A stretch of DNA of 63,061 nucleotides, the filler included, from Craspedostauros australis (taxonomy: Eukaryota): NCBI GenBank assembly GCA_030167865.1. It is 14 parts of 14 records of this genome, joined end to end, with 100 filler letters (N's around TTAATTAATTAA, not from the genome) between each part and the next. Parts side by side here need not be neighbours in the genome. Positions count along the whole stretch, not along the records: positions 6,109 to 8,875 come from JALAGF010005247.1; 13 more parts are not named here. One strand, given 5' to 3'. The notes under the pieces are model-generated. The model had not been told where the DNA came from and searched no databases. It saw nothing but the letters and a program-made list of their open reading frames with translations. Each line of letters opens with the position of its first letter. Within the stretch, counting starts at the first letter, position 1. The position numbers and the translations under genes were made by a program. Below, in pieces: positions 5,907-51,269 of the stretch.

Positions 5907-6052
5907 TGCCTTCTTCGGTGCTTGTGCTGTCCTGCACGGTTGCTCCGTGGATGCACTTGGTGCCGTTGGATCGGTCGCTTTCGAACATGATTGGATATTT
6001 GTGGCAACNNNNNNNNNNNNNNNNNNNNNNNNNNNNNNNNNNNNNNNNNNNN

Positions 6053-6064
6053 TTAATTAATTAA
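6053..6064. other. Artificial contig linker TTAATTAATTAA flanked by Ns (also at ~8920, 11886, 21086, 22480, 26232, 27807, 30525, 43797, 53663, 56082, 57322, 60348)
   Basis: Identical 12-mer with stops in all six frames, always embedded in N runs. Confidence 0.97.
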
Positions 6065-6240
6065 NNNNNNNNNNNNNNNNNNNNNNNNNNNNNNNNNNNN
6101 NNNNNNNNCAGTGGTGTGCTGTGCTTGTTGCATGTTCATGCAGTGTTTGTATTGTCACCTTCTTGCACTCCTCTTGCTCAGTTCACTTCCATCGAGACTA
6201 GTCTTCTCCATCCACTCTTCAGTATCAATCAATCAACATC

Positions 6241-6840
6241 ATGCTCGTCTCTACTGCGAAAGCTGCGTCCAAGACTGCTTGTCATTCCCCCTCCAAGAAG
6301 CAACGTCTGCCTTCCTCTCCGTCCAATCCAATTGATCCCATGGGACTGTCTGCGCCATCCACTGCTGAGAACGTGTTGCCTTGATTGGATATGGATGGTA
6401 AGCAGCACATTCCACCACCTACAACGGACAAGCTCAAGCCTCCTATGCTCAATGGCGTGGCCTTCGACAACGAGCGTGACGTTGAAATCATAACCAACAA
6501 AGAACAGAATCGCACACTCCAGCAAAAGCGCAACAAACACAACGAACACAACAACCTCGCAACCACCGACGAACACAAACAACACTGATGCAGGAATCGT
6601 GCCTGTACAACAAACAACATCAGAAGAGGAGGAAATCGCATGAGACGCAAACCATGTAGGAAAAATACAGAGTCTCGTGAGATGGTGGAACAAAATGTGA
6701 GGACACAATTGCTTGGAAGAGTCAGAGCCGCAATGCAGGGACTAAACAAACAGATTAGCATTGGAGTTGACGTCGACAATCCTGTTGTTGGCGATACCAG
6801 CAAAGGCACCAAGACACCAAGTCTGGTCGTGGTGAGCTAG
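6241..6840 (+). pseudogene. Putative ~200-codon reading frame with two in-frame TGA stops; product unknown
   Basis: ATG at 6241 is in frame with track ORFs 6385-6588 and 6640-6840; the only interruptions are TGA at 6382-6384 and 6586-6588. Confidence 0.35.
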
Positions 6841-7367
6841 CCGTGTCTAGATATGCACACAATCAATGGGTCGATATCAATTAAAATATTGCCTTCTAGC
6901 AAAATCGGGTTCCACTAAGAATCTAAAAATTATATCTAGTTTAAGAGTATGTGAGTAGTATGGTTGAAAGCCCCGTATGTTGCCACCACTCCATGACCGA
7001 CTGCAGGTGCCGTCACACAACCTCAAGTGGTAAATCACTTGAGGTCGTTGGGAATTGTCGGAGATGAAACACGGGCAGTTGTTGGCATCTCGGCGACAGA
7101 TCCGCAGTAGGACACCTGCGGCAATGGCTGTGCGATCGTATCCAAAACCAATCCAGCCTCCGACTTCTGACCCTCCATCATCGTGTGCTTGTTGCGCCGC
7201 CTGTGCGCTCTCATCATTTGTGCGCTCACATCACTCGCGTAAATTTAGCAACAATGGATTGAAGCACGTGTCCTCACATCCTCACAAAAAGCAAAACCTG
7301 TATAGATTCACCCATCAAACGCCAAAAGCCAACACCAACCAACAAAACAACAACCAACGCCAACACC

Positions 7368-8642
7368 ATGAAGCTCTCCGTTTCCTCTGCCATCGCTGCC
7401 ACCCTCATGGGCATGTTCTCCGCCACCAATGCCGACATCCGCTTGGCGGACTTTACCTATGGCAGCAACGGCTGGGAGACGAAGTTCGACAACGTCATCC
7501 CTGGTGGATCCTCCGTGGGCAAATTCATGCCGGTAGGTGGTGGTTCCTGTTGGAAATCCGGGGTTAGTGTTAGTAAGACCTAATTCGTTGTTAGACCGTA
7601 CTATTCAGAACTGTGAGCTCATTCTCTTCNNNNNNNNNNNNNNNNNNNNNNNNNNNNNNNNNNNNNNNNNNNNNNNNNNNNNNNNNNNNNNNNNNNNNNN
7701 NNNNNNNNNNNNNNNNNNNNNNNNNNNNTCATGCACATCGTCGTGCATATCCGTAGGCATTCTTTCCATGCACCTTGTCGTGCATATCCTTATTCTACAT
7801 TCCCTGCGGTACAATTCCACAGTCTTGCGTTTTGCTCTTGATCTCCTGACACCGAACTTTCCGATTGGTGTCATGATTGGTGTCATGGCTGATGCGCTTT
7901 CTGAGTTGTTCTAGTCCGTGGGTGACACGTGCCATGATCTCCAGATGGGGTGATCATCAATGTGTCGGTCATCATCTTCCTTCACATGATTTAGATATCG
8001 TGGCCTTTTCTTGATTCATAGAGGACAGGCTTGTTTGCTTGGTAAGACTGAGGTCATTCCCGTGTGATTCGTGTCGTGGGTGGAATGGANAATATTCAAT
8101 GGTGTGACGAATAATATCCAAAGGTGTGACAAATAATGTTGGGAGTTGCGGCAATCATGGGTATCTTTCCGACATAGTCGTACCCTCGATTCCTGACAGG
8201 TTCCACCTTTGTTGGGTTTGTCAATTTCCAGCCATTCATCGGCGGACCAGGATTCGTCAAGACCGTTGGCACCAAGTCCTTCCCCAACATCGCTGGCTGC
8301 GCTGCCATCGAGATCACCATGATCCCCTTCAACGGCTACAAGGCATACTGCGTCACCTTCGGAGATGTTCCTCCAACTCCCGATATGCCAATTCCATTCG
8401 AGTGGCGCGCCGCCATCCCTATCTCTGGACCAGGCATCAACAGATACACCATCCCACTCGATGAGTTCAGCAATGCCTGGGACTTTGCCACCGGCAAGAT
8501 CATCACCCCATGCTCTGCTGACCAAAGTGTCTGCCCAACCCCAGCTGTGCTGTCCAACATCCAGTTCATGGAAATCTGGGCCCAAGGAGTCGAGGGACCG
8601 TTCTCCACTGCTCTCTTCACCATCAAGGCAGTCGGTTGCTAA
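7368..8642 (+). CDS. Secreted CIA30 (complex I intermediate-associated protein 30)-like domain protein, interrupted by an insertion at 7548-8198
   Basis: Signal peptide MKLSVSSAIAATLMGMFSATNA. Removing the insertion plus one TSD gives an unbroken frame ..WETKFDNVIPGGSS..PVGGGS|TFVGFV..PGFVK..FPNIAGC..IPLDEFSNAWDFATG..EIWAQGVEGPF..IKAVGC*. Confidence 0.7.
7548..8198 (-). mobile_element. Short TG...CA element (solo-LTR-like or non-autonomous), 6-bp TSD GGTTCC
   Basis: Ends TGTTGGAAATCCGGGG ... GTACCCTCGATTCCTGACA; GGTTCC at 7542-7547 and 8199-8204. Strand is relative to the TGTCAGG-first copies. Confidence 0.9.
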
Positions 8643-9376
8643 ATTGACAGTCGTGGCCTCCGCCCTCTTCGAGTAGGGTTGTGGATATGGATCCGGGTGC
8701 GCGAATTCAAGCAGATCCTGCCAATGCCAACTGGATGATGATTGCAAACCTAGCACATCATCACGCAGAATCGGGTGTTGCCATGCGGACCCATGAACAG
8801 CTGCAGCAGCACCCGCACCATTCACATGTCCAAACTCCTTGTCAATAGAAATGCAAAGACCGAATCTTTCGCCACNNNNNNNNNNNNNNNNNNNNNNNNN
8901 NNNNNNNNNNNNNNNNNNNTTAATTAATTAANNNNNNNNNNNNNNNNNNNNNNNNNNNNNNNNNNNNNNNNNNNNTCTGCCTCTGGAATTTTGGGGAAGG
9001 CAAACGCCAAGAGCAAACGGGATGCATCTTCAGGAACGTTCTCAGAATGATGCAAGAGGTCAAGGGAAAACCTCGTTCCTACAATGCACAGGATGTTTCC
9101 CTTTTTGCCTCCTGTCACCCAATCGAGCGTTCATGTGAGTCAGTGGTTGTGGAAAAGGGATCCACAGTTGTGTGAGAAGACAGATGAGGTTGNNNNNNNN
9201 NNNNNNNNNNNNNNNNNNNNNNNNNNNNNNNNNNNNNNNNNNNNNNNNNNNNNNNNNNNNNNNNNNNNNNNNNNNNNNNNNNNNNNNNNNNNNNNNNNNN
9301 NNNNNNNNNNNNNNNNNNNNNNNNNNNNNNNNNNNNNNGATACGTTTCATCTTGTGCATTCAGATATAGATGGGTG

Positions 9377-11445: not shown

Positions 11446-11941
11446 GATGAAACAAGCTTCTTGAAGCTGGTGGGAACCTAAACAGTGTTATATTAGAGGA
11501 ACATTTGATGATGAAAGACGTTGATGGTACTGAAGGGGACGACAATTATGATAAAAAGCTTGTGGTTACATACAAAGTTGTTGTGTTACTGTCTACAAGT
11601 CTATTGAAGTCCAAGGATGCGGTTGACAACACGTAAATCAACGCGACAAAATACGAAGCCAGCATCACAACCAGAACGCAACCGAGAGAAACAGGGAAAT
11701 TGGAGGAGGTGGAGTGGTCAAAGTAGTCTTTTCTCAGATGAGCGAAATTCGACTACTTTTCGAATGATTCTGGCTTGCTTGCGTGCTCAGGACGCGAAAT
11801 GAAGCACTCGCAGGCACACAGATGACAGTCTTCTATTGCTTNNNNNNNNNNNNNNNNNNNNNNNNNNNNNNNNNNNNNNNNNNNNTTAATTAATTAANNN
11901 NNNNNNNNNNNNNNNNNNNNNNNNNNNNNNNNNNNNNNNNN

Positions 11942-12001
<60 letters not shown>

Positions 12002-12288
12002 AGTGTGTGTTTGAGTGTGTGTTTGAGTGCGAGGGTTAGTGTGTGTGTGTGTGTGTTTGAGTGTGTGTGTGTGTGTGTTTGAGTGTGTGTTTGAGTGTGA
12101 GTGAGTGTGTGTTTGAGTGTGAGTGAGTGTGTGTTTGAGTGCGAGGGTGAGTGTGAGTGTGAGTGTGAGTGTGAGTGTGAGTGTGAGTGTGNNNNNNNNN
12201 NNNNNNNNNNNNNNNNNNNNNNNNNNNNNNNNNNNNNNNNNGTGAGTGTGAGTGTGAGTGTGAGTGTGAGTGTGAGTGTGAGTGTGTG
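11942..12288. repeat. (TG)n / (TGAGTG)n / TGTTTGAG compound microsatellite
   Basis: Seen directly. Confidence 0.95.
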
Positions 12289-12796
12289 CCATTGCTGCTC
12301 ATGTGTGTCGTGGGTGTAGTAATGTCCTTGTATTGTGGGTTATCGTGCAATGGCGTGTTGTGTGATCAAGTTTTGACTTTGTGGGCATTGTTCGGGCACT
12401 TGTGTGTGTGCATGTTTTTGCTGCCAGTGTGTTAGGGGCTATTAGCAACATTGTTTTGGGGTTATTGTGCATTGGGGTGTAGTGAGCTGTGTCTTGATGT
12501 ATGATTGGTGCTGTCAATTGTTAGGGTGATGCTTTTGTGTCCTGGATTATCGTGCTTTGGCCTGCAGTGAGCAGTGTCTTAGTGTATGATGGGTGCTGGA
12601 AATTGCCCTGTTCTTTTGTGTGGTTGGTTATCATGCATGGGTGTGTAGTGAGCAGTTGGTGACATGTTGTGCCATGGCCTTGTCTCTGTGCATGCCTTGT
12701 GTGTCTTGTGTGCCTTTGCTACTCGTGTATGGAGGGTTGCGGGTTATTAGTGATGTTGTATCTTGTGTTTTTGTGCATTTCCTTGTTGTGAGCACT

Positions 12797-12959: not shown

Positions 12960-15900
12960 GGCTGCAAGTGACTGCACATGACTGCAAGTGACTGCAAGTG
13001 TGAGATATTGTGATCCAAAATGGTCCATCTTTGAGGCTGATAATGAACATCGTGAAGTTGCCAGCTGCATGTGATATGGTGGTGGAGTATTGCGCGTGCC
13101 ATGGGGCACGTGTGAACGTTGTGAGATGTGCGATTACAGCAATTGGCAGTGGTGAGAGAGTATCCGGAAATGTGTGCAAGTGTGAGATATTGTGATCCAT
13201 CATGGTCCATCCTTGAGCATGACAATGAATATGATTGAGTAGCCAGCTGTATGTTCCACGCTTGGTGCCACGTCAAGGTAGCTTCGAAGTGTGTATGACC
13301 ATTGTTGGATGTGTGATTACTGCAGTTGGAGGTGTTGAGATATGGGCCGGAAGTGACTGCAATTGTGAGATATTATTGTGATCCAACACGATCCATCATG
13401 ATCCATCTTTGAGTGTGACAATGAGCACGTTGGGGTGGCTGGCCGCATGTGATACACTTGGTCGATGTCATGCATGGTATGGGCGAGTGCGGCCATTGTT
13501 GGATGTGTAAAGTATATTGCTGTTGATGGTGTTGAGACATGGGCTGGAAGTGACTGCAATTGTGAGATATTATTGTGATCCAACATGATCCACCATGGTC
13601 CATCTTTGAGTGTTACTGTGACAGTAACAATGAGCATCTTGGAGTTGCTGGCCGCATGTGCCACGCTTGTATCGTGCCAATAGTGTTATGGGGCGTGTGT
13701 GAGCGTTGTTGGTTGTGCCATCACCACAATTGGTGGTGGTGAGAGAGGATCTGGAAATGTGTGCAAGTGTGAGATATTATTTTGATCCATCATGATCCAG
13801 GTTTGTGTGCAAAACTGAAGATCCTGGAGTCGCCAGCCACACGTGATACAGATGTGATGTATTGTGTATGGTGTATTGTATGTGCCATGGTGCGTGTGTG
13901 AGCGTTGTGGGGTGCGCGAGTATCACAGTTGATGGTGTTGTGAGAGTGGCCAGAAGCATCTGCATAATTCGAGATTGTGTGATCCATCATGGTCCATCTG
14001 TTGAGCGTGACTGTGACACCGAACATCGTGGAGTTGCCAGCCACGTGTGACATGGAGGTGGTGTATTGTACATTGTACGCTGTACGCTGTACGTGCTATA
14101 GCTATGGAGCGTGTGCATACGATGTTGGATGTGTGATACATTGCATTAGATGGTGTTTGCAGAGGGACTGGAAATGACAGCATGTGCGAGAAATTGTGCT
14201 CCACCATGATCCACATGTGAGTGTGAAGGCAACAACGAGTATCTTTGAGTTGCCGACCGCATGTGATACGGATGTACCATGTCATGCGTGCCATCAAACA
14301 TGTGCGAGTGATGCTGGATGTGCGATTAGTGCAGTTGATCATGTTGTGAGAGTTAGGGTTAGCCGTTAGGGTTAGGGTTAGTATTGTATCTGCAAGTATG
14401 TGATTTTGTGAGCCATCTTGGTTCATCTTTGAGTGTTACTGTTACAGTGACAACGAGCATCATGTCGTTGCCAGCCACATGTGATATGGATGTGGTGTAT
14501 TGTGTATTGTACGTGCCATGGGGCGTGTGTGAGTGTTGTGGGATGTGCGAGGATTGCAGTTGTTGGTGTTGTTGTGAGAGGGGACGGAAGTGTCTGCATG
14601 TGTGAGAGTTTGTGATCCCCATCATCCATCATCCATCATCCATCATCCATCATCCATCATGGTCCATCTTTGAGTGTGAAAACGAACATCATGGCGTTGC
14701 CGGTCGCATGTGATATGGATGTGTTGTATTGTGTATTGTGCATGCCATGGGGCGTGTGTACGCGTTGTGGTATGTGCGAGTATTGCAGCTGATGGTGTTG
14801 TGAGAGTTAGGGTTAGCTGTTAGGGTTAGTATCAGCAAGTGTGAGATTTTGGGATTCATCATGGTCCATCTTTGAGTGTTACTGTGGCTGTGACAATGAG
14901 CATCCTGTAGTTGCTGGCCAGATGTGTTACGGATGTGCCATGCCAGGTGTGCCATGGGACATGTGTGATTGTTGGTGGTTGTGCAAGGATTGCAGTTGAT
15001 GGTGTTGTGAGAGTTAGGGTTAGCCGTTAGGGTTAGCATTGTGTCTGCAAGTATGTGATTTTGTGAGCCATCTTGGTTCATCTTTGAGTATGTCAACGAG
15101 CATCATGTCATTGCCGGCCACATGTGATATGGATGTGGCATGTCATGTGTTCCATGCGACGTGTGCGAGCGTTGTGAGATGTGCAAGGATTGCAGCTGAT
15201 GGTGTTGTGAGAGTTAGGGTAAGCCAGAAGTATCAGCAAGTTTGAGGTTTTGCAATCCATCATGGTCCATCTTTGAGTGTGACAATGGGCATCATGTCGT
15301 TGCTGGCCAGATGTGATACAGATGTGGTGTATTGTGTATTGTGTATTGTGCGTGCCATGGGGCGTGTGTATGCGATGTTGGATGTGTGAAATATTGTAGT
15401 TGATCGTCTTGTGAGAGTTAGGGTTAGCCGTCAGGGTTAGCATTGTATCTGCAAGTTTGAGGTTTTGTGATCCATCATCCACCATGATCCATCTTTGAGT
15501 GTGACAATGAGCGTCATGTCATTGCTGACCACATGTAACATGGATGTGGTGTATTACATGTGCCATGGGGTGTGTGTATGGGATGTTGGATGTGTGGCTA
15601 CCGCAATCGGAGGTGTTAAGAGAGAAGCCGGAAGTGACTGCAAGTGGGTGATTTTGTGATCCTTCTTGGATCATGTTTGAGTGTGACGGTAACAATGAGC
15701 ATCATGTCGTTTCTGACCAGATGTGATATGGATGTGGCATGTCATGCATGCCATTGGGCATGTGCAAACGTTGTGAGATGTGCGAGGATTGCAGCGGATG
15801 GTGTTGTGAGAGGGGCCAGAAGTGTCTGCATGTGTGAGAATTCGTGATCCATCATCCATCATCCATCATCCATCATGATCCATCTTTGAGTGTGGCAACG

Positions 15901-16080
15901 AGCATCATGGAGTTGCCAACCACAAGTGCCACGCTTCTGCCATGTCATATGTGGTGTGGGGCGCCTCCTGGCGTTGTTGGATGTGTGACTACCGCAATCA
16001 GAGGTGTTGAGAGAGAGAGAGAAGCCAGAAGTGACTGCAAGTGGGTGCTGTGTGGTGAGTGATGGCAGTTGCTGTGCATT
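12960..16080. repeat. Satellite A: about 15 diverged ~200-bp monomers, some containing TTAGGG runs
   Basis: Anchor CATGGTCCATCTTTGAGTGT recurs at ~13021, 13203, 13400, 13598, 13793, 13990, 14208, 14421, 14660, 14862, 15075, 15264, 15487, 15670, 15877. Confidence 0.9.
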
Positions 16081-16169
16081 CCATTTTGGGTGTGTGAGTG
16101 AGTGTGAGTGTGTGAGTGTGTGAGTGTGTGTGTGTGTGAGCACGTGTGTGAGCACGTGTATGTGTGTGT

Positions 16170-17520
16170 ATGTGTGATGAATTTGTATCATGGGTTAGGT
16201 TGGGCAATACTTTTAGGAGTTAGTTAGGGTATGCATGGTTGGGGTTAGGGTATGGGGTTAGGGTATAGGAATGGATATCAGCTAGTTTTCGTTGTGCTGT
16301 GTGTGATGGTAAGGGTCAGGGTGTTATGAATTTGTAGCAAGGGTTAATAGGGTGTTGCTGTGTGACGAATTTGTATCAAGGGCTAGGGTGTTAATGTGTG
16401 TTGGATTTGTATCAAGGGCTAGGGTGTTGCTGTGTGATGAATTTGTATCAAGGGCTAGGGTGTTAATCGATGATGAATTTGTATCAAGGGTTATTTAGGG
16501 CAATACTTTTAGGAGTTAGTTGCGTGGTTGGGGGTTAGGGTATGGGGTATAGGAATGGATATCAGCCAATGTGCGCTGTATGGTGAGTGATGAAAAGGGT
16601 TGGTGCTTTATGAACTTGTAGCAAGGGTTAATAGGGTGATGAATTTGTTAGGGTGTTAATGTGTGATGAATTGGTATCAAGGGTTAGGTTGGGCAATACT
16701 TGCAGCAGTTAGTTGCGTGGTTGGGGGTGGGGTATAGGAATAGATATTGGCCAATGTGTGTTGTATGGTGAGTGATGAAAAGGGTTCCAGCATTTTGAAC
16801 TTGTGGCAAGGGTGAATGGCTGATGAATTTGTTAGGGTGTTAATGTGTGATGAATTGGTATCAAGGGTTAGGTTGGGCAATACTTGTAGGAGTTAGTTGG
16901 GTGGTTGGGGGTTAGGGTATGGGGTATAGGAATAGATATTGGCCAATGTGTGTTGTGCCATGAGTAATGACAAGGGTCAGGGTGTTATGAACTTGTGGCA
17001 AGGGTGAATGGCTGATGAATTTGTTAGAGTGTTAATGTGCGATGAATTGGTATCAAGGGTTAGTTTGGGCAATACTTGCAGCAGTTAGTTGCGTGGTTGG
17101 GGTTAGGGTATGGGGTATAGGAATAGATATCTGCTAATTTTCGTTGTGCTGTGAGTGATGGTCAGGGTCAGGGTGTTCTGAACTTGTGGCAAGGGTGAAT
17201 GGCTGATGAATTTGTATCAAGGGTTAATGGGTGATGAATTGGTATCAAGGGTTAGTTTGGGCAATACTTCCAGCAGTTAGTTGGTTGGTTGGGGGTGGGG
17301 TATAGGAATAGATATTGGCCAATGTGTGTTGTATGGTGAGTGATGAAAAGGGTTGGTGCTTTATGAACTTGTAGCAAGGGTTAATTTGTGATGAACTTGT
17401 ATCAAGGGTTAATGTGTGATGAATTGGTATCAAGGGTTAGTTTGGGCAATACTTGCAGCAGTTAGTTGCGTGGTTGGGGGTGGGGTATAGGAATAGATAT
17501 CTGCTAATTTTCGGTGTGCC
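16170..17520. repeat. Satellite B: about 7 monomers of ~185-190 bp rich in degenerate TTAGGG/CAAGGGTTA
   Basis: Anchor GGGTATAGGAAT recurs at ~16262, 16545, 16731, 16922, 17114, 17298, 17484. Confidence 0.9.
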
Positions 17521-18031
17521 GTTAGCGATGGCAATTGATGTTTATTGCATTTTTGGGTGTATGAGTTGTGTTTGGCTTGCAACATCATGAGTGAGCTATG
17601 TTCCAACCATGTGTCAACCATGTGGACAGTGTGTGCGGTGTTTGGAGTGTGTGCATGTGCTTGGGGGTCGAGATTGGCCAGTTGTTGTTGTGGGTTGAGT
17701 GATGGCCATTCCTGTACAATGCATTTTGGTAGAGTGAGTTGTATATAGCTTGCAGAACTGTGTGTCAACCATTGTCAACCATGTTGTCAGTGTGCAAGGT
17801 GGCTGGAGTGTGTGTATGGGCTGTGACTACATATGGCTCAGTGTGAATTATGTGGTGGGTGATGGAAATGGCTGTGCCTTGCATTTTGGACTATCCGCAG
17901 CATGAACCTTTATGTGTGAGCCGTATGTGAGCAGTGTGTGAGCCATTTGTGAGCAGTGTGTGAGCAGTGTGTGAGTCATGTGTGAGTCATGTGTGAGCTT
18001 GGTAGGACCAATGGGTTACCTACTTGACAGT

Positions 18032-18773
18032 TGTTGGAAATCAAGGGTTATAGTCAGCATGAATCTAAGCTGTTTTTAGATCATACCGTTTTAGAACTGT
18101 GAGCACATCCTCACTCTCACTCTCTTTCTCACTCTCTCTTTCAATTTCAATTTCATTGTTGGCGTTCTCTGTGGTGCCATAGCGAGGCATTGTTGTATTC
18201 CTGAACATATTCGATGTGTCTTGCTCATGCATCCTCCTGCACCTTCTATCATGCCCTCATCCTGATGCTTCATCGTCCGCATCTGCACACTTGTACCCTT
18301 CCACATATGTGTGGTAGGGGTCCACAGTCCTGCATGCTATCTTGTCATGTATTTCGGCTCTCGACCTCGTGACATCTCGTTTCCACTTGTTTACGATTGG
18401 TGTCACCCTCAGTGATGTCCCAAACCTGCGGTCGTAGTGACCCTTTCTGAAGTTCCAAACCTGCAGTTGTTTTGTCCGTAGGGGGGGCGCATGCTGTCCC
18501 CCCAGATGGAATGAAGCTCTCGCCCACTGCCCTGCTGACGTCTTTGTTTGTGTCGTTGTCTTGTTTGGGTTAGTGTCAGGACATCCTGTCGAGCGTCATC
18601 ATGGTTGTTCTTGATTCATGAGGACGGGCTGTTTTTCCTGGTTCACGAGTGTGATGAGTAGGACTCGAATGTGTGATGGATAGTGGACAATCATGTGATG
18701 AATAATGTCCAAAGGTGTGATGAATAGTCTCTGAACATGTGACGAATAATCTTGGGAGGTGCAGCAATCATGG
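18032..18773 (-). mobile_element. Short TG...CA family element, one end truncated
   Basis: Starts TGTTGGAAATCAAGGG..TTTAGAACTGTGAG and ends TTGGGAGGTGCAGCAATCATGG; lacks the final ~35 bp. Confidence 0.8.
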
Positions 18774-19122: not shown

Positions 19123-20640
19123 TCACATGGAGGTGGTGTAGCGTAGAAACGGTCGGACAAGCAGATCGAATTGGGCATAGTGGAATCGCATGTTGGTTTC
19201 GTTTCTCCGTCCTCCTCCTGGTCCTGGTTTCTCCCAACATTGACCAGTTTGGTGTCACCTTTCGCTCACCTTTTGCTCCAGAGCGCGTGTGTCCGAGGCT
19301 TGCCTGAAAGATTGAAAACAGTGGTAGCTTTCGCGTAGCTTGGATGCATTGGTGATGTCAGGAGGAAACAACCCTTGGTTGGTCTCCCATATACCCTCCA
19401 AGACATCATGGAGTGCATCGTTGAGATCTTTTGGAGTGTAGAGGGTACCTTGTTTCAATGAAATCGCGGGACCGTGATATTGTTGCGACTTCTGCTTCAC
19501 ACTCAGGGGTGTGTTGATGATGCCTTGGACGTTGATACCCGATTTGGTTCGCTTGGATAGAGGGATGATATGTTTGTATGACTGATGTTTGCCTTTGAAT
19601 TTGCCTTGTAGTAGTACAATGGTGATATGGTCGTCTGGCTTTTGGCATGATTGTTCCTTGATGGTGGCCCTGGGGTCCAACATCTGTGCCTCAGAACCCC
19701 AAAGAGATATGGTGTAGGATAACATAGCACAGGTCATGAAAGCAGCCCATCGATGTTGTTCTGGGGTTGTTGTGTTCACATTCGTCGAATTGTTGTTGTG
19801 CCATGTCCAAGATTGCCAATACAAGTGCTGTGGAGAAGCCTTTGTTGGGTCTCCAGTCCTGTCCCATTCAGTGTCAACAGCCCTCGTTGAACCTGGAGAA
19901 CCAGAAGGAGCCACATGGGTCATGAGCGATCCATTGGTACTTATCATTCTGATTGCCCATGCTCAATGATTGTTGTGTGGAGGCAGCTGACGCGCGAACT
20001 TGGTTGGAGTAGGTGGCACGCAATTTGCGGATAGTGTCGTACTGGATGTGAGTTTTGGAGTATTGTCCCGGTTTCAGCAACGCGAGTACCATTAGAATGG
20101 CCACTTGATAACTGCAATGGTCGTATGCGGGTAGCGGACCTTTGGCTTCGAATGGTCCCTCCAGACCGAGTTCTTGTGCTGCCTTAATCATCTGTTTGGC
20201 TCTGCTGGTGTTCGCCTTGGCGGTGGTGGAGGCTCGACTCCAGAAAGCATCCAGATTGACTCTCCGGATGGCACCCATAATCCGTTTGTCAACAGCGTTG
20301 AGTGTGATGGGTTGTCTGTGCTTCAGCTTGACAAATATGCAATAATCGCGCTCGAAAGGAATCAGTAGGTGGTCACCATCGCGTGCTTGGCTGTATGCTG
20401 CACGATCAACGCTTCTGGCACCCCAGCTGATCAACATTCTCTTGTCCAGATCGCTTGCGTTTTGTGTTGCCGTCTTGAAGATGGAAGTGATGAAAGCCAA
20501 GGTGGTTGTCCGAAGTATAGCAATAGCACCTGCCACACCACATATTTCGGCATGCTGGAAAACTGCCGATGCTCCAGTAGAAATTAACACAAAAGATGCC
20601 CTCTGTCCAGGTTCGGAGTCTTGAACATCTTCGACGCGTC
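19123..20640 (-). pseudogene. Decayed tyrosine recombinase of a DIRS/Ngaro-like retroelement
   Basis: Cys-rich start GIFCVNF..PACRNMWCGRCY, then RDGDHLLIPFE, IRRVNLDAFWSR, SYTISL(W)GSE (catalytic Arg position), HCFQSFRQASDTRA and MRFHY (catalytic Tyr); several frameshifts and stops. Confidence 0.65.
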
Positions 20641-20649
20641 TCTTTCGCC

Positions 20650-21041
20650 TGTCCAGAGCAATGAGGCGGCATGGCATCATGGCGCGGTAGGCAGCCCATG
20701 GAGGATGGGAGTTGGAGAGCCAGTTGGTCCAAGCAGCAACCTCCTTGCGGAGATGCTTGGACTTGCTGCCAAAACCGCAGGAACCAGTTTCCCAGATGGA
20801 CAGCATCAAGACCGCCTGGACCGGACCAGCCTCCCCGGAGAGTTTGCAAGCAACTGATCCAACCACCTCATTTGGTGATCTTGACAGGGACAGGGGTGGG
20901 AGCAGGACCGTCATATGGCTCGAATGCTCTTGTCCCGTTGCCACTGATGTCAGGATCACGTATGACATGACAGGATGCCTGAGTCTCAGTGTCTCCTCCA
21001 CGGGCAGACCAGACTTGGTGTCGATTTCTGCTGGCAAGAGG
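20650..21041 (-). mobile_element. Fragment of a CRE-like non-LTR retrotransposon (region just before the RT core)
   Basis: KLSGEAGP..FGSKSKHLRKEVA..WLSNSHPPWAAYRAMMPCRLIALD; breaks off where K.PGVRP would follow. Confidence 0.6.
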
Positions 21042-21141
21042 NNNNNNNNNNNNNNNNNNNNNNNNNNNNNNNNNNNNNNNNNNNNTTAATTAATTAANNN
21101 NNNNNNNNNNNNNNNNNNNNNNNNNNNNNNNNNNNNNNNNN

Positions 21142-22435: not shown

Positions 22436-22697
22436 NNNNNNNNNNNNNNNNNNNNNNNNNNNNNNNNNNNNNNNNNNNNTTAATTAATTAANNNNNNNNN
22501 NNNNNNNNNNNNNNNNNNNNNNNNNNNNNNNNNNNGATTAATGAGATTCCCGACAACTCTCCTCACCACACTTGTACGATTTTGATGCTGATGTTCGTGC
22601 CACCTGTTTCTCTCTCTCTCTTCCTCTTGAGCCAACAAGAAGGCAATTGAAGATGAACAACAGCAGACATTCGATGGACACGGAGTAAGACACATAA

Positions 22698-24358: not shown

Positions 24359-24849
24359 TGTCAGGAATTGGATGTTCTGAAACACTGGATTGCTGCACCT
24401 CCCTCTTTGGATCATTATGTGACACCAACCATGTGAGCTGCACCAAGAGGCAGAGAACACTGTATGGCAAGCGCAAACCAGATTGTGATGTCCATGACCG
24501 CAATTCAGGAATGGAAGTCACACATGTCTGTCACAAGAGGCAGCGATGTTGGATTTGTGACCAACATCACAAAATGCACAGTTACGGCCCCTATGTTGCA
24601 ATGGACAAGAAAGGCATTTTTGGGATGGCCAGCATGACGAAGTACAAGATGACATGCAAACATATCTCTAACAATGAACCAGTGAAAATTGGAGAGGAAT
24701 GGAGATTGTCCCAAGATGATAGAACAATACTGCAAACAAGAGACTTACTGAATGCTGAAGGGTGATCAATCCGTAGGAGAGAATTAGGAGTACAAGTTTG
24801 TGGTTGAGTGTGTGAGTCTTTAGTCTGATAGCTGTAACAAATCCAAACA
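24359..24849 (+). mobile_element. Old, internally deleted copy of the short TG...CA family (subfamily B)
   Basis: TGTCAGGAATTGGATGTTCTGAAACACTGGATTGCTGCACCTCCC; collinear with the 24942 and 34332 copies with many CG>TG changes; right end approximate. Confidence 0.7.
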
Positions 24850-24941
24850 AGACTTTTGAAAGGATTGTGAGCAGGTGATGAGCAGCATCCGTTCTAGTTG
24901 GATCTGCAGCATCTCTATTTGTAGTGGTATACCGGAGAATT

Positions 24942-25753
24942 TGTCAGGAATCGAGTGTTCTGAAACACCTAATTGCCGCACCTCCCAGGGGTAGGGGAAT
25001 CGAATGTCATGAAATGATACATTACCGCAACCCCAGACTTTGGATCTTTGTGACAGAAAATGTGAGCTACACGCGTTTTGTGGTGGAGAACGCCTCGTGC
25101 CGAATGCAAACCGGACCATAACGTTCGTGACCTCAATACAGGAATACGAATCACACGTGTATGTCGCAGGGGGCAGGGATGTTGGAATCGTGACCAGCAT
25201 CACGATACACGCGACTACGGCTCCCATGTCGCAACCAATGAGAAAATAATACTCGAGACAGACCGATGTCACGGTGAGATGGCCTGTGAACGGATCACTA
25301 ATGACGAACCTGCAAAGGATCGGTGAAGTGTCAGTGAGGTGATCGGAGAGGCATCGGAGAAGTATCGGAGATGATCGGGGATGTGTGACCATGAGGAGCT
25401 GAGAGAGCCCCCATCCAAGGTGTTCCTGTGATGAATGGAAGACCGCGATCCGATCGAATGAAACGAGCTATGTGATGCCTACGACTTGGCAATGTCTAAG
25501 CCAACAAAACTATTGGTGGCAAGACAACGTGCCTTTGTGCACGAACATGGGGTACTTGGTGGTGCATGCATGTCCATGATGAATTTGCGATGAATGCAAG
25601 ATGGATGCATGCTAGACTAGTAGATGGACCCATGGAGATCTCAGGAGGAGATCGAACTTTGCAATTGAGAGCAATGAAGAGCTCACAGTTCAGAGAAGTA
25701 GATTCTAACAAACGATTAGCTTTATACTATCACACCACCCCGGATTTCCAACA
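24942..25753 (+). mobile_element. Short TG...CA element (subfamily B); flanks AGAATT / AGCGTT (4 of 6 match)
   Basis: TGTCAGGAATCGAGTGTTCTGAAACAC ... CTCACAGTTC ... CCCGGATTTCCAACA. Confidence 0.88.
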
Positions 25754-26103: not shown

Positions 26104-26187
26104 TGTTAGGAATTGAGGGTACGACTTTATCGGAATACCCGTGATTGCCGCACCTCCCAACATTGTTCGTCACAGCTTTGAATATTA
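26104..26187 (+). mobile_element. Left end of a short TG...CA element (subfamily A), cut by the contig end
   Basis: Nearly identical to 45119-45202. Confidence 0.85.
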
Positions 26188-26996
26188 NNNNNNNNNNNNN
26201 NNNNNNNNNNNNNNNNNNNNNNNNNNNNNNNTTAATTAATTAANNNNNNNNNNNNNNNNNNNNNNNNNNNNNNNNNNNNNNNNNNNNATGCAGCTGCACA
26301 AGACAGTATTGAAGGCAGTTGCCATAGCTGTCTATTGATCAGGGCTTCTTCCAGCCTTGCCAAGTCAGGTAGTAGAGAAAGAGACAGACTAAGTGATTAG
26401 AGCAGAACAGAGAAATTGGTTGTATGCCTGTGAACAAAGTGTTGTACAGAAGACCCGTGTTGCCTGTCATTGGAACGATTTTGGGTTTGCACAGTTGTCA
26501 ATTTGAATGAATCCCATTGGGTCTTCGTTCTAAGACCAAAGGGAAAATATATATTACCATAGCTCCCAGTTTTTGAGTTGGACAAGCANNNNNNNNNNNN
26601 NNNNNNNNNNNNNNNNNNNNNNNNNNNNNNNNNNNNNNGTGAGAACTCTCAATTCCTACTTCCGACGAAGAACAAGGAATCACCAACATGTCACGATCAT
26701 TGACTGGATGGACTCGTTTTTAACCAATCATAGCGCGCGACGTGGACAATGCGAATCGAAAGCGGACTTCGACAGATGTCAACATCACAAGTGTCGCGCG
26801 CGTGCGCGGAGCGCAAAAAATTCTTGTGCGGTCAAACGTTGCCCAGGCAGAGTGACAAATTTGAGTGTGCGAGATGCGTGTTGCCCCCAACGATGAATTC
26901 AGTAGTGGATGCCGGTTGTGCTTTCAATCACTTCCATGGAACGATGACAATTGGCAGTTGCAACACAGATTCTTCAGGAGCTGCTTTTGTGGTTAG

Positions 26997-27161: not shown

Positions 27162-27862
27162 AGCATCATAGCTCGTCGTGTGTTGGTGTGATGGAGGTTG
27201 GCGAACTTGGGGAGATTGCACCCGACACAACAGGACGACGAGCTGGGCTCTCTCCCACCAAGATCCCAATCGCCGCTGGTATTCGCTGCCAAATATAAGG
27301 TCTGTCCCTCTTTCGAAAAGACGCTGCGCGTCATCGAGAAGAAATGATTGGTCGCTGAAAATTCAAACAGGTTGGTGGAGAACACCTCTCGCAGACACAT
27401 GATCTGAAATCAGAAATTTGGAATCTATATTTGATGACGTTAGGCCTTTGTTCTGGTCCAAAACGTGAAATACGTCGAGAACAAGAAAATCACACTTGTT
27501 TGGAAACAGGAAAGCACACGAAACTGAGTTCGATTCGGAAGAATTAAGTGATTGACACCAAAACAAGAAGCCAAGAGCAAAGCAGATGAACAACGGCCAG
27601 AAGCCAACGATGGCCAAGGACAGCAGCAGAACAGAGAACAAGGCAGTGTGAAAGTCAAGCTGGGCATCAAGATCTGGATTACCCACCAACCCACAACTCT
27701 GGATTGTGATGCCTGATCTGCAGCCGGAACGAAGCATTGGCCTCAGCATGCCTGCCACCACTNNNNNNNNNNNNNNNNNNNNNNNNNNNNNNNNNNNNNN
27801 NNNNNNTTAATTAATTAANNNNNNNNNNNNNNNNNNNNNNNNNNNNNNNNNNNNNNNNNNNN

Positions 27863-30356
27863 TCCGGACCATGGTGCGGACATTGATGTCGTCGCAACCA
27901 ATGAGGTGGTTAAGGAGCGTGCGGCGTTGTTGCGCGTCGGAGACTTATTGATCCGGGTTGGTAGCCAGGAAATTCACGTTCGCGAATATATCTTGGATTT
28001 CCTTCACGTAGGATCCCAGGTCCTGTCTGCTGGGGTTGAAGTCGTGTACTCTCTTCATCAGAGAGTCGACCTCCNNNNNNNNNNNNNNNNNNNNNNNNNN
28101 NNNNNNNNNNNNNNNNNNNNNNNNNNNNNNNNNNNNNNNNNNNNNNNNNNNNNNNNNNNNNNNNNNNNNNNNNNNNNNNNNNNNNNNNNNNNNNNNNNNN
28201 NNNNNNNNNNNGACCTGTTCTGGCGAGGTGGTTGTTGGCACTCCTGTCACCGGGTCGATGTGGTCCTTGATCGCGTGGATTCCTTGGGAATGGTAACGGT
28301 GCCGAAACTGGTCGTTGATCAGGTACGCCATGTCGTTTCCAAGGAGATGAGCATGGATTTGGTGTTTCACCACTTGGAAGGATGCCGCATCACTCGTGAA
28401 CTTGACGGAGTCAGGGATGGGGCGTCGCTTCGTTAGCTTGACCTGGGCGACTTGTGGTTCGCCGCGGGTGGGTCCACGATGGGATGTATACCCGGGTTCG
28501 TGTTGCCCGTGTGGGGTGTTTGGGCCCATGTTGCGTAGGTCATGTCTTCCGAAACCTCCATTGGGATCGGTTGGGCGGTACTCATACGCGGGTGGTCGTG
28601 GTGGATACCCGGGGTGAGGGGGTCCAACAGGGGTGAAGGCTCCTGGTGGCATTGGAAAACCTCCGGCTCCATGGGGAAAATGGCCCATGGGGATAGGGAT
28701 TCCAATGGGCGGGAATCCTCCTGGTTGGGTTCCGTGGTACATCGGAATCGGTGGGCCATGAGGGAGTTGGTTTCCCAGGTTAGGGGGATACCCATACGGA
28801 TTACCGTCATTGTGTCCATGGTTAATTGGAGGTCCATGGTTGTCACGGTGCGGGCGGTCTGTCCCATGGTTCGCGGGTGGGTTGCTGGCAGGGTTTCGGT
28901 TCACGGGTCCGTGTCCGTTGTTACCTCGATAGTTACCCACGCCATGTGAGGCTGGTGTATCCGCGGTACCGTGGTAGGGATGCGGGTTCCGATCGTGGGG
29001 TGGATGGTTCCCGTCGTTCTCTGGGTAGTTCATCCGGGGTGCATTGGTACCTCCTGGGCCTCTGGCGGTCGTTTCGGGGGCGAAGGTTACTACCTTGGCG
29101 CCGGTTGGGTTGCGGTTGTAGTCGCCGATCGTCGCAGGGTCTACGTTGGGGAAAAGTCGGTTCCGTCCTGTGGGACCGCGGTTGTCGGGTGCGTCTACGG
29201 TATCGTCGTTACCAGGGTGTTGGTCGTAATCGGTGCCTGGTTCGGTGTCTTCGTTGGGCAGAGTGGTACCACGGGTGTCGATGATTACTGGTGACATGTT
29301 TTGTGATCCTTGCTTGGCGATGCTGGAGAGTTGGGTTTCGTTCTGGAAGTCGGGTGGGGTACGGTGCGGGGTGTTCCCACCGAGCATGAGGGAGAGCCCA
29401 GATGGGGTTCCTCTTTGGTGGCTGTCGTTGTCGCGTCCGGTTCTATGGGTAGATGCTTCTGACCCAGATGAGACGCTGGTCGCGGATGCGTTGGAGAGTG
29501 CCTTCTTGTGCTCCGCGATGGCAATCAACCACGTGGCATTGTGGTCGCGTTTGCCGCGTCTTTCGAAACGGTTGAAGTCGTTCATGGTCTTGACGGTGAT
29601 GGTTGCGTCGGCGAACATCATGTCGAGGGTGCGTCCGAGTGTGGATTCATCCTCAACATCGATGGATCTGATCCATTCACCGATGTGGTAGATGAAGAGT
29701 CCCATCTCGTAGTTCCTTGCAACGTCGTCTGGGTCCTTGAAGTTGACCATGATTGACGCTGGGGTCATGTCGTTGGTTCCTTCATGGATGATATACAACA
29801 GTTGGGAGATGGTATTCTCTTCTGCGAGGGTCCTGGGTAAGAAGAGGTCAAAGATCATGGCGGTTTCGATGCTGATCCCGAACTCTTCCTTGAGTTCCGT
29901 GAACGCGTTCCAGGTGGTCTTGTGGACTTGGCGCACGATTTTGGATTCGTAGGTTCTTTCCTTTCGATTCCATGCATCCACGATGATGGGGTGTCGGAAG
30001 GTGACCTCGATGAAGTTGACTCCGATGTCCACGAAGGAGAGCGAAGACGGCCCAGTCGTGGGGTAGCCTGGCGTACCATCAAGGATGGCAGAGAGGCTTG
30101 GGTCCTTNNNNNNNNNNNNNNNNNNNNNNNNNNNNNNNNNNNNNNNNNNNNNNNNNNNNNNNNNNNNNNNNNNNNNNNNNNNNNNNNNNNNNNNNNNNNN
30201 NNNNNNNNNNNNNNNNNNNNNNNNNNNNNNNNNNNNNNNNNNNNNNNNNNNNNNNNNNNNNNNNNNNNNNNNNNNNNNNNNNNNNNNNNNNNNNNNNNNN
30301 NNNNNNNNNNAGAGGCTTGACTGGCAAGCGATCCGGACGAGAGTCTTCTGTTCCAC
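27863..30356 (-). mobile_element. Gag-like ORF of a diatom-type LTR retrotransposon, with a Pro/Gly/His-rich linker; copy 1
   Basis: Long ORF with KRRPIPDSVKFTSDAASFQVVKHQIHAHL..YLINDQFRHRY; close paralogue at 53719-56037; contig ends in repeats. Confidence 0.6.
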
Positions 30357-31538
30357 AAGTAGTCAATTTAGAATACTGGTAGATGGTGAAGAAACATGCG
30401 GATTATGAGATTAGTGCTATGGTTCTTCTCTTCGAGGGGAATCTCCTGTGATGTCCTGTATGACAATGCGTGTGGGTTGTNNNNNNNNNNNNNNNNNNNN
30501 NNNNNNNNNNNNNNNNNNNNNNNNTTAATTAATTAANNNNNNNNNNNNNNNNNNNNNNNNNNNNNNNNNNNNNNNNNNNNGGGGGGGCTACGAAGAGGAT
30601 CGTGCCAACGCGGACTTGGAATACGGGAAACAATAAATAGTATGGCGTCCATGGCTCGTCCACCCTGGTCTTCCCCTGGTGTTGACGATTGACACTGTGC
30701 GGTGTCTCTCTCATCTGGTATGCAAGATAGCGTCGTCACCTTGAGATTTATTGTCCAAATCACAAAGTGCCATGCAGGATCTTGACGTTCAGGGTCAAGA
30801 AGAGCAGGGTTGCGTGCTCAGACATCACAGAGAAGACGGCCACAGTTCTTGCTCTGCCGAATGCGGTGCGCGATTAATACAAGTTTGGAAGTGTGTATGG
30901 TTTCTCGCAGTAGGTTGTGAGATTTATGAGGTTGAGAGTGATGGACTTGACAATGCTCTCGACGAGCTAGTCATGCCCGGTTCGGATTTGCTCCTACATG
31001 CCTCCATGTTGTCACGATTCCAACTTGCCTCGACGTCGGTGATTGACACTACGCGGTTTCTCTCTCATCTGATATGCAAGATAGCATCGAATTGGGATTT
31101 ATGGTCCATAGGAGAAACATGTTGGCTATGAATGTTCTCGAGATTCCTGTGGCTGGGTCAACACACCAGCACTTCAAATGGCACCTGGTTGGAAGAGAAG
31201 AAATAAACGCAGGTTGCGGCGACTTGAGGTGCACTTCATCTAACACTGCACCCCGCAGCTGAGAGAGTGAGGAGTCAGCGCGACTGGCCTTATCGAATTT
31301 GCGTCTATCTCGTTGCTGGGAGCCAGTGTTGGATCATTCCCAACGTTTCGTCGTATTGTGTACAGGGCAGAGCAACACTTCACCGTTGCACAATCGTCGC
31401 CGTTGGCAGCAATGATGAAGATGGTTTCATCAATCCAAATCAAAGCCTCACAATTCCGAGATGGATCATCTTCACAAGCATCGTCACCTCAAGGAACTAC
31501 CAATCGTCAACAACTAGCCAGAGCAAGACTGAGTCATC

Positions 31539-34331: not shown

Positions 34332-35150
34332 TGTCAGGAATCGGGTGTTCTGAAACACCGAATCGCCGCACCTCCCAATAGTGGGGAGTCGAGCGTCATG
34401 AAACGCTGTGTTACCGCAACTCTCACTTTGGATCTTTGTGACAGAAAATGTGAGCTGCACGCGTCTTGCGGTGGAGAACGCCACGTGCCGAATGCGAACA
34501 GGGTTGTGACGTTCGTGACCTCAATGCAGGAATGGGAGTCACACGCGTATGTCGCAGGGGGCGGCGATGTTGGATTCGTGACCAGCATCACGATACACGA
34601 GACTACGGCCCCCATGTCGCAACGAACATGAAAGGAGGATTCAAAGATGGCCGGCGCAACGAAGTGTGAGATGGCCTGTGAACGAATCCCTGATGACGAA
34701 CCGGTGATGGATTGGTGAAGTATCGGAGAAGTATTGAAGAGGATCAGAGATGTCCCAGGATGAGAAGATTGGGAGCAATCGTCCGAGCTCTTTTGTGAAA
34801 CATGGAGACTGTGATCTGATCGAATGAAGCAAGTCAAGAATGCCTGTGAATTGGATGACTGATGTCTATGCTAATGAAACTATTGGTAGAGAGCAGGAGA
34901 TGGAATATCTGAGATGCATCAATACTGCAAGATGAGATGTACATGGAGTACATGCTGCATGACATGATGAAGCAGAAGGACAGCACTACATGAGCAAGCG
35001 CAAGACTGTGTGCTACTGTGGATGATGTATGCTTTGGCAAATGGAATTGAAAGAAATGGAGATGTTGTACTCACAGTTCCAACAATGCAATAACATGAAT
35101 AGGTAACCAGAGACTACTACTAGAGACTGGGGTACCCTGGATTTCCAACA
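34332..35150 (+). mobile_element. Short TG...CA element (subfamily B); flanks TCTGTT / TCTTTT (5 of 6 match)
   Basis: TGTCAGGAATCGGGTGTTCTGAAACAC ... CTCACAGTTC ... CCCTGGATTTCCAACA. Confidence 0.88.
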
Positions 35151-45118: not shown

Positions 45119-45829
45119 TGTTAGGAATTGAGGGTACGACTTTGTCGGAATACCCGTAATTGCCGCACCTCCCAACATTGTTGGTCACAGCTTTGAATAT
45201 TATTCGTCACATGTTCGGAGACTATTTGTCACACCTTTGTATACCATGTCATTATGACTATGACTAAGCATACGGACGCGATTGATACCTGTATAACCGC
45301 GAGGAGGGTAGCCTGTCCTCCAGTAACGTAAGGACGACACCCACGGCGGATCAGGAGGTCCCGATACCACGCCAACCATGGCAACTATCCAGACGACGAC
45401 GTCGATCAGAACAGCATGTCCATGGGCAAGTGACGCACCTTCTTCAGAGGACAGCACGCGCCCATCCTGCGGACAAGAACATCCACAGGTTTGGAACATC
45501 ACCAAAGGTGACATCGGCCATGAGACGATGGTGTCATGAGATCAACGATGGAAACATGAGACAGGCAAGTGCTCAGGACTGCAGATCCCTACCATGCACA
45601 CGTAGACAGCTACGACAATGCAGAGACAAGGAAGCAAGAACAGAGCATGATGAATGAAGAGGGAAGCACCTAAGAGACAACAGGATGCCCCGTGTCGTTA
45701 CCGCGNNNNNNNNNNNNNNNNNNNNNNNNNNNNNAAGAGAAAGTGAGATTGTGCTCACAGTTCTAAAACGGTACAGTTTCTAACAGCAGATTAGAATTTA
45801 GTACTAACTATAACCCCGGATTTCCAACA
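45119..45829 (+). mobile_element. Short TG...CA element (subfamily A), 6-bp TSD TATGCC, inserted in copia gag
   Basis: TATGCC at 45113-45118 and 45830-45835; removal restores the frame HIFAYA|RSNTID. Confidence 0.92.
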
Positions 45830-50515: not shown

Positions 50516-51269
50516 TGTTGGAAATCCGGGGTTAGGTAGTAGATTAATCTGTTATCAATCTGTACCAATTTAGAACTGTGAGAACAAACTCCTTGACTCT
50601 TCAATTCCAATTCAGCAGCAAGTGTAATCCGTAGCAGTTCACCATGATCATGCACATGTCCATGGTTGCTTTCATCTGCTTTATCAGCTTGCTCTCATGC
50701 TCTCTTCTGCAGATTCATCATGCATCATCGTGGTGATTTGCATCTTCTACATTCGAGCAGCATCTCTCATAGACGTACAGGTACCTTCAGCATGGGTCTC
50801 AGTCTGATCGATCCCACTTGACCTCGGTTCCTCAGCATTCCTCCTGTGCCATCATCACATACTCACCGGTCATGTTCATTCCATGTCGCGTCGTCAATCG
50901 TGCTCTTGAGCGGATAGGGGCGTCGCTCCCGTTTCTCTTTCTCGGAGAGGCGATCCCTTGTCCGTCGATGCGCGTCGACATGTCTGATACATATCGGCAG
51001 TTTCGCCCATAGTCTTGGCTCATGTGCGATTACATCCCTAGAGGTCGATCCATAGGTTCGCCCTCATCACAGCGGTGGTACATGGATAGGTTCCATGGTG
51101 GGACATGACTGATGTTGATGTCATTCATGAACAGAGAGTTGATGGGGGACAGGCTGCAAGGTGGTCCGAGTGTTACCAACAAAGTTGACCTCGTCGAGTT
51201 GTGAAGATATTATTGGGAGGTGCGGCAATCATGGGTATCTTAGTAAAAGCGTACCCCCGATTCCTGACA
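50516..51269 (-). mobile_element. Short TG...CA element, 6-bp TSD AACTGG, inserted between copia RT and RNase H
   Basis: AACTGG at 50510-50515 and 51270-51275; removal restores PSNPEL|VAQMKEEYP. Confidence 0.92.

Follow-up and report, generated by a model that had tools for sequence, protein, structure and literature searches.

An LTR-like insertion in a coding exon of a CIA30-like gene of Craspedostauros australis: probable disruption weighed against intron gain

In the raphid pennate diatom Craspedostauros australis, one copy of an LTR-like repeat splits a 205-codon CIA30-like gene that is a member of a multi-copy family. Judging from the sequence of the gene and of the repeat, the resulting allele is probably disrupted and without productive splicing. 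A pair of splice dinucleotides at the edges of the insertion would restore the gene exactly if used, and the first-pass annotation had taken this as a sign that the repeat may be creating introns. We found no support for that proposal in the sites or in the behaviour of the repeat family.

The element lies in a coding exon

The window analysed here (63,061 nt) is a chain of small scaffolds, not a single piece of chromosome. Its parts are separated by identical linkers (n = 13 in the whole window) of 44 N, TTAATTAATTAA and 44 N. Such a spacer is a six-frame stop linker, a device for stringing unjoined scaffolds together as one pseudomolecule. The features of the interrupted gene are as follows.

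6109..8875, no strand: scaffold with the insertion, 2.77 kb, with artificial 44N-TTAATTAATTAA-44N linkers on both sides
7368..7547, + strand: 5' coding part (60 codons) of the interrupted gene, whose product is a small secreted CIA30-like protein; the N-terminus resembles a signal peptide
7542..7547, + strand: left copy of the target-site duplication (TSD), GGTTCC, from sequence
7548..8198, + strand: LTR-like element, copy A, 651 bp as assembled, starting TGTTGGAAATCC and ending ATTCCTGACA
7630..7728, no strand: assembly gap of 99 N within copy A; a related copy has a CT-rich low-complexity tract there (18108-18150)
8199..8204, + strand: right copy of the TSD, GGTTCC, from sequence
8205..8642, + strand: 3' coding part of the CIA30-like gene, 145 codons plus a TAA stop (TAA at 8640-8642)

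The annotation had described a mobile-element insertion with LTR-like TG...CA ends, and this was confirmed by the perfect 6-bp TSD on either side of copy A, whose edges read TGTTGG from 7548 and CTGACA to 8198. Both exons are open, as it had also stated: the frame that begins with the ATG at 7368 runs for 60 codons, and reading from 8199 gives 147 codons before the stop. Deleting 7543-8199 (657 nt) joins 7542 to 8200 and gives the empty site exactly, with 205 codons and a stop. Translation of the unspliced allele instead continues for 11 codons of the element before a stop is reached, for a product of 71 residues.

A protein search with the 3' part of the gene returned eight homologues of 200-206 residues (E-values 1e-42 to 1e-68) from diatom transcriptomes and JGI data, the best of them from Craspedostauros and 80% identical. 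When the 205-aa protein of the empty site was aligned with these sequences, its two halves abutted without a gap against all eight, and FVGFVNFQPF, encoded directly after the insertion, was found to be conserved coding sequence in the homologues. The element thus sits within an exon. An older intron at this position was considered and rejected on the same conserved flanking residues. Pfam gave no significant match to either half of the gene, and weak CIA30 matches were found in six of the eight homologues, one of them above the Pfam cut-off. The N-terminus of the interrupted protein looks like a signal peptide.

We also checked the gene for decay. The interrupted protein differs from its homologues at 11 of the 73 columns that are invariant among them, whilst the expressed homologue P0008 differs at 15 of 77, in leave-one-out counts that are not independent because two homologue pairs share identical halves. 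There is thus no clear sign of decay. Several distinct homologues of the interrupted gene are expressed in one Craspedostauros transcriptome. Neither a second copy of the gene nor an empty allele was found within the 63-kb window. An argument from the missing transcript in the Craspedostauros transcriptome was dropped, as the organism is not represented in the protein and transcriptome collection: best identities there are 80-84%, and no entry exceeds 83-84% identity to the DUR3 urea transporter of the window.

Splice sites in and around the element

Donors were scored as matches to MAG/GTRAGT over nine positions (the slash marks the splice point); this is a generic consensus, and the reference from the genome itself consists of only two introns, both in DUR3. 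The sites that bear on splicing of the insertion are listed below with these two introns.

7533..7538, + strand: CCG/GTAGGT, the strongest donor-like site nearby, 7/9, in the upstream exon; pairs in frame with each of two acceptor-like sites, 8231 and 8177
7543..7548, + strand: TSD-borne donor GTG/GTTCCT, 4/9
7573..7578, + strand: element-borne donor TTA/GTAAGA, 5/9; with the acceptor at 8199 in frame, adding 10 residues
8193..8199, + strand: acceptor CTGACAG/, formed by the element end and the first TSD base; 10 of the 14 upstream bases are pyrimidine and there is a C at -3
8225..8231, + strand: TTTCCAG/, an acceptor-like site within the downstream exon and 35 nt past the terminal CTGAC, with no AG between beyond 8199
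41441-41705: DUR3 intron, 265 nt, CAA/GTGAGT...AACAG/, donor 8/9, placed by homology
41832-42073: DUR3 intron, 242 nt, CTG/GTAAGT...AACAG/, donor 8/9, placed by homology

The second donor to which the annotation had drawn attention, TTA/GTAAGA at 7573, is present and in phase with the acceptor at 8199, as claimed. Being in phase is a common property here. Five of the seven donor-acceptor pairs that we translated keep the frame and meet no stop (7543..8199, 7573..8199, 7533..8231, 7563..8231 and 7533..8177), and so it weighs little.

These pairs raise the prospect of cryptic splicing, in which the donor at 7533 or 7573 would be joined to an acceptor at 8199, 8231 or 8177, giving in-frame variants together with retained, prematurely terminated transcripts. 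In maize, transposon and retrotransposon insertion alleles of waxy, adh1 and bronze are partly spliced out, and their splicing has been shown experimentally. The present case is like these alleles in being an exonic insertion with cryptic donors and acceptors in or near the element that could give leaky, altered mRNAs; such mRNAs are a possibility here. The number of stop-free pairs speaks for this reading, as do the best local donor, which is the one at 7533, and the placing of the acceptor-like site at 8231 relative to the terminal CTGAC. The variants from the cryptic routes, of +10, -14, -4 or +5 residues, would be of uncertain function. The -14 route deletes an FDGFVNFQ-like block that is conserved in all eight homologues, the +10 route adds residues where no homologue has any, and some in-frame pairs are expected by chance among so many candidate sites. 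On this balance, cryptic in-frame splicing is unlikely.

The repeat family and the extent of the inserted copy

Copies of the family were found by local BLAST and a terminal-motif search of the window. Besides copy A, seven were recovered, and copia-type remnants were located by Pfam on ORFs.

50516..51269, + strand: copy B, 754 bp, perfect TSD AACTGG, nested in a copia-type RT/RNase H ORF
45119..45829, - strand: copy C, 711 bp including 29 N, perfect TSD GGCATA (element orientation)
34332..35150, - strand: copy D, 819 bp, flanking 6-mers matching at 5/6 positions
24942..25753, - strand: copy E, 812 bp, flanking 6-mers matching at 4/6 positions
24359..24941, - strand: copy F, partial, adjoining copy E
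18032..18773, + strand: copy G, truncated at its 3' end
26104..26187, - strand: copy H, last 84 bp only, cut by a scaffold end
38629-39441, 49669-51841 and 60956-63061: copia-type remnants

The family has members of 650-820 bp with TG...CA ends, a 6-bp TSD and no ORF. The TSD is perfect in three of the five complete copies (A, B and C) and degenerate in the other two. Similarity between copies is limited to approximately the first 80 and last 60-100 bases, except for copies D and E, which are 75% identical over 585 bp. Within these ends, alignment revealed a block TGTTGGAAATC that is invariant in all six left ends, a second block GAACTGTGAG about 60 nt in that is likewise invariant (6/6), a block GGGAGGTGC(G/A)GCAAT some 50 nt before the right end and a terminal block ATTCCT(G/A)ACA (ATTCCTRACA) in all seven right ends. 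The termini are invariant exactly up to the element boundaries in the six left and seven right ends. By manual count, the left and right termini match at 12 of 19 positions as a short imperfect inverted repeat. The search with the right-end pattern also picked up the left end of copy D.

No long terminal inverted or direct repeats were found in the gap-free copies B, D and E, where a repeat search gave only chance-level matches of 12-29 nt; a TRIM or MITE structure was rejected on these grounds. The TG...CA ends, the fixed 6-bp TSD, the length of 650-820 bp and the lack of coding capacity would fit a solo LTR or another non-autonomous element mobilised by an integrase, and we infer that the inserted copy may be a solo LTR. 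The repeat was not found in the window as a pair around a gag-pol internal region with primer-binding site and polypurine tract, an absence that weighs little in short-read assemblies, where LTR pairs collapse. Two more specific relationships were tried and rejected. Copies D and E are not the two LTRs of one element, given that they are only 75% identical, each has its own degenerate TSD and the flanking 6-mers of the cross-pairs mismatch. No link could be made between the family and the copia-type remnants of the window; in the copia element at 46-52 kb, the sequence after the pol stop (51842) starts differently from the family terminus.

Elsewhere in the searches, the 19-mer of the left terminus had no match in metagenome contigs and a 21-mer common to copies A and B had none in viral contigs. 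For so abundant a family this indicates that the species is evidently outside that metagenome collection. The Protein Atlas offered no usable lead for two unexplained long ORFs.

Copy A itself is interrupted in the assembly. Its scaffold (6109-8875) consists of two contigs that each end within the repeat and are bridged by the 99-N gap, and a single N at 8090 also falls within the element. The element length of 651 bp, and with it the intron length of 657 nt, are thus estimates. The gap might hide more than its nominal size if copy A were a full-length LTR retrotransposon whose identical LTRs had been collapsed over the gap by a short-read assembler, in which case the supposed intron would measure several kb. 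This is a separate question from that of splicing or of an assembly artefact, and its likelihood is judged separately. The position of the gap and of the contig ends within the repeat would suit such an element, and the window has many coding remnants of copia type (Pfam matches were found in 4 of 58 ORFs scanned, and three of these four are copia domains). Against it, gap sizes across the window vary from 18 to 211 N and so look estimated, not conventional. A gap also interrupts copy C in the corresponding position, where copy G carries the CT-rich tract, which suggests a local problem of assembly and not a hidden internal region. The gap-free copies B, D and E, at 754-819 bp, have no internal coding region. 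A full-length element at this site is quite improbable.

Exact excision and the introner proposal

The annotation had further observed that the element and one TSD copy could leave the transcript as a TSD-assisted GT...AG intron at 7543-8199, whose donor would come from the left TSD and whose acceptor would consist of the terminal CA of the element and the first G of the right TSD, so that a wild-type mRNA would result. Such excision is formally possible. The interval starts GTTCCT and ends GACAG, a U2-type boundary check found GT at 7543 and AG at 8198-8199, and the geometry is exact, leaving a 205-codon ORF whose product is colinear with the homologues. The acceptor context, CTGACAG/, appears respectable and both exons are intact. 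There is also precedent. Algal introners are an established case of introns created with the help of a TSD, according to the available text of a review (PMC11282704), and copia solo LTRs form functional introns in Panicum virgatum, according to that of a genome survey (Gozashti et al. 2025, PMC12130899).

The donor, by contrast, is poor. The annotation had itself flagged GTTCCT as weak, rightly so: it matches the consensus at 4/9 positions, with neither a purine at +3 nor G at +5, and is thus not close to the consensus of the genome's own introns, whose donors GTGAGT and GTAAGT both score 8/9 (two introns). Among the 17 GTs in 7450-7628, nine score higher than the one at 7543, five tie with it and two score lower; stronger ones lie 10 nt upstream (7/9) and 20-30 nt downstream (6/9 and 5/9). 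The candidate intron is 657 nt as assembled with its gap, compared with 265 and 242 nt for the authentic introns (n = 2). The best branch-point-like motif close to the element's 3' end is the terminal CTGAC, only 3 nt from the AG at 8199, and the usual spacing of branch points speaks against its use.

The geometry is also no more than chance would give. For an element with TG...CA ends, exact restoration of the target by GT...AG excision is open to 175 of the 4096 possible 6-bp TSDs (4.3%; 4.5% after weighting by composition). Of those 175, 64 belong to the GGTNNN class to which the present TSD belongs, and a target starting with GGT is expected by chance in 1 of 64 cases. Exact excision in one of three copies with perfect TSDs is unremarkable.

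At the level of the family, the proposal that an introner-like LTR repeat is creating introns found no support: the TSD geometry is expected in about 1 in 23 random insertions, the donor is poor and the other copies with perfect TSDs are not excisable as GT...AG. The TSD of copy B, AACTGG, gives no GT...AG in any register and that of copy C, GGCATA, gives GC...AG, so boundary splice sites are not consistent across copies and GT...AG is found in copy A only. The only GT near the left end that is conserved in position (element bases 16-17), if used with the terminal CAG, would leave +20 nt, a length not divisible by three. Nor are the copies found as introns of many different host genes. Of the five complete copies in the small scaffolds covered (63 kb), A alone interrupts a host gene; B is in a copia pol ORF, and C, D and E are in non-coding or repeat DNA, with no convincing host ORF spanning their empty sites.

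Two biases that would be expected of exonic copies had been put forward. The TSDs show no excess of G as first base (G, A, G, A and A for copies A to E, n = 5), and both copies that interrupt an ORF (A and B) are in sense orientation (n = 2); neither count has statistical power. With the empty site restored, the copia RT/RNase H ORF around copy B reads through 470 codons without a stop. The presence of copy B in an otherwise intact copia pol ORF indicates that recent insertions leave open flanking frames with no need for splicing. None of this evidence resembles an introner family as defined in the available text of PMC12130899. With the donor, the putative branch point, the chance rate of the geometry and the family-level pattern all against it, exact splicing of the insertion is very improbable.

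Discussion

The preferred reading of this allele is a disrupted one. A family member would have integrated by an integrase-type, 6-bp staggered cut into a coding exon of the CIA30-like gene, and the assembled allele is most likely disrupted, either null or at best leaky through cryptic sites. The pair of sites that would restore the gene exactly is then probably a coincidence of a target that starts with GGT, and nothing in the element or family appears to be built for clean removal. The perfect TSD and the still open halves of the gene point to a recent insertion, and the allele is presumably non-functional or heterozygous. Diatoms are diploid and this gene has paralogues, so such an allele could persist, perhaps in the heterozygous state. 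In the other direction, gene halves free of stops and frameshifts are equally expected of a maintained, spliced gene and count against disruption. The respectable acceptor CTGACAG/, the several in-frame splice routes and the absence of a clear sign of decay are further points against it. That the insertion is an assembly chimera and absent from the genome is hardly credible: the assembly is highly fragmented and the family repetitive, but both gene-element junctions lie inside contigs, the flanks share the 6-bp duplication and are consecutive halves of one homologous protein, and the window holds no second copy of the gene.

The disrupted allele can be set beside insertions and introns already described. 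The element is like the Copia introners of Panicum virgatum (solo-LTR and full-length) and the LTR-derived introner families, as far as these are described in PMC12130899, in its TG...CA ends, TSD, sense orientation in a gene and GT...AG at or near the boundaries. Those families were defined from numerous annotated introns whose splice sites agree and whose splicing is supported by transcripts; the present family, by contrast, has one genic copy in the window, with a weak donor, and the other copies are not excisable in the same way. The likeness to the introners of Micromonas and Aureococcus (PMC11282704, in its available text) is that a TSD completes one splice site and the element is removed exactly with one TSD copy. 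As outlined there, these introners are short TIR or MITE-like DNA transposons that carry a splice signal of their own, so that nearly every insertion is spliceable, and they are present in genes in hundreds to thousands. Unlike in those introners, exact removal here needs a GGT-initial target, with the odds given above for that register. The primary paper on the Micromonas and Aureococcus introners is reportedly that of Huff et al. 2016.

Among diatoms, the closest parallel is Blackbeard of Phaeodactylum tricornutum (Maumus et al. 2009, PMC2806351), which is also of LTR type, has a short TSD and inserted recently, and which may likewise persist in one haplotype beside an intact allele; many LTR-retrotransposon insertions in Phaeodactylum are found in one haplotype only, according to the available text of that paper. 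Blackbeard differs in being a full-length CoDi copia with a 4-bp TSD (TTCC according to the figure legend), as opposed to the approximately 650 bp, 6-bp TSD and coding-exon position found here.

LTR-derived introners, solo LTRs included, are already published, and the idea is no longer new: in a survey that covered 8,716 genomes, approximately 12% of the introners classified with confidence are attributed to LTR retrotransposons (PMC12130899, available text). The same text reports one dominant introner family of unknown mechanism in Parmales sp., described there as a marine diatom, and, its datasets aside, contains no case of an introner in a raphid pennate diatom. Our search of the introner literature found no report of LTR-derived introns in diatoms.

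If a correctly spliced mRNA were produced from this allele, it would be a rare snapshot of the birth of an intron in a single event, from an LTR family not specialised for it, and the first in a diatom. It would extend to diatoms the LTR-derived intron gain that has been reported in plants and dinoflagellates. As it stands, the insertion is best regarded as an ordinary case, in a draft diatom genome, of an abundant LTR-like repeat that disrupts a single member of a small gene family, and the repeat family itself now has a usable description in its termini, 6-bp TSD and conserved internal blocks.

Scaffold joins and tandem repeats

All 13 spacers between the parts of the window were identical, each consisting of 44 N, TTAATTAATTAA and a further 44 N:

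6009-6108, 8876-8975, 11842-11941, 21042-21141, 22436-22535: spacers 1-5
26188-26287, 27763-27862, 30481-30580, 43753-43852, 53619-53718: spacers 6-10
56038-56137, 57278-57377, 60304-60403: spacers 11-13

The TTAATTAATTAA spacer is a six-frame stop linker chaining separate small scaffolds into the window, and adjacency across spacers is therefore artificial.

Satellite-like arrays with a unit of ~185-200 bp were found at two positions:

12982-16047: satellite-like array
16164-17534: satellite-like array

An inverted relative of these arrays is present at 57378-57848, and (TG)n / (GTGAGT)n microsatellites border them at 11942-12300 and 58084-58223. The window itself starts with a dense tandem repeat of 9-bp period (1-611), broken by a 50-N gap.

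A urea transporter gene

A transporter gene lies on the plus strand:

41229-43751, +: urea-proton symporter gene (DUR3/SSF)

Its product shares 83-84% identity with other pennate diatom proteins. Both of its introns (41441-41705 and 41832-42073) are GT-AG, and its 3' end is missing, truncated by the scaffold end.

Dispersed repeats and the LTR-like family

Two further repeats were dispersed across the window. The arms of a 688-bp inverted repeat (20354-21041 and 59616-60303) are 100% identical and each terminates exactly at a scaffold end; this is probably a single repeated element where two contigs break. A 1.16-kb pair (28212-29369 and 54546-55703, the latter on the minus strand; 93.6% identity) sits within long ORFs, one of 632 aa and the other of 397 aa or more. 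Neither ORF had a Pfam family or a usable Protein Atlas match, and they may encode an unclassified mobile-element protein.

In the LTR-like TG...CA family, a GAACTGTGAG block lies ~60 nt inside the left end, invariant in 6/6, and is followed by a CT-rich tract:

7605-7629: left-end GAACTGTGAG block region, copy A
45735-45760, -: the same, copy C
18095-18150: the same with the CT-rich tract, copy G

Copies A and C each have an assembly gap exactly at the position of the CT-rich tract. A second conserved block, GGGAGGTGC(G/A)GCAAT, lies ~50 nt from the right end.

Copia-type sequences were found at three positions:

38629-39441: copia remnant, gag-pre-integrase
49669-51841, +: copia-type RT/RNase H ORF (Pfam RVT_2)
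60956-63061: copia remnant, integrase SH3 and RVT_2, extending past the window end

Copy B of the LTR-like family (50516-51269, +) splits the second of these. In the empty site, the target with the element and one TSD copy removed, the reading frame of this ORF continues through the insertion point for 470 codons without a stop. Copy B is a recent nested insertion in the copia-type ORF.
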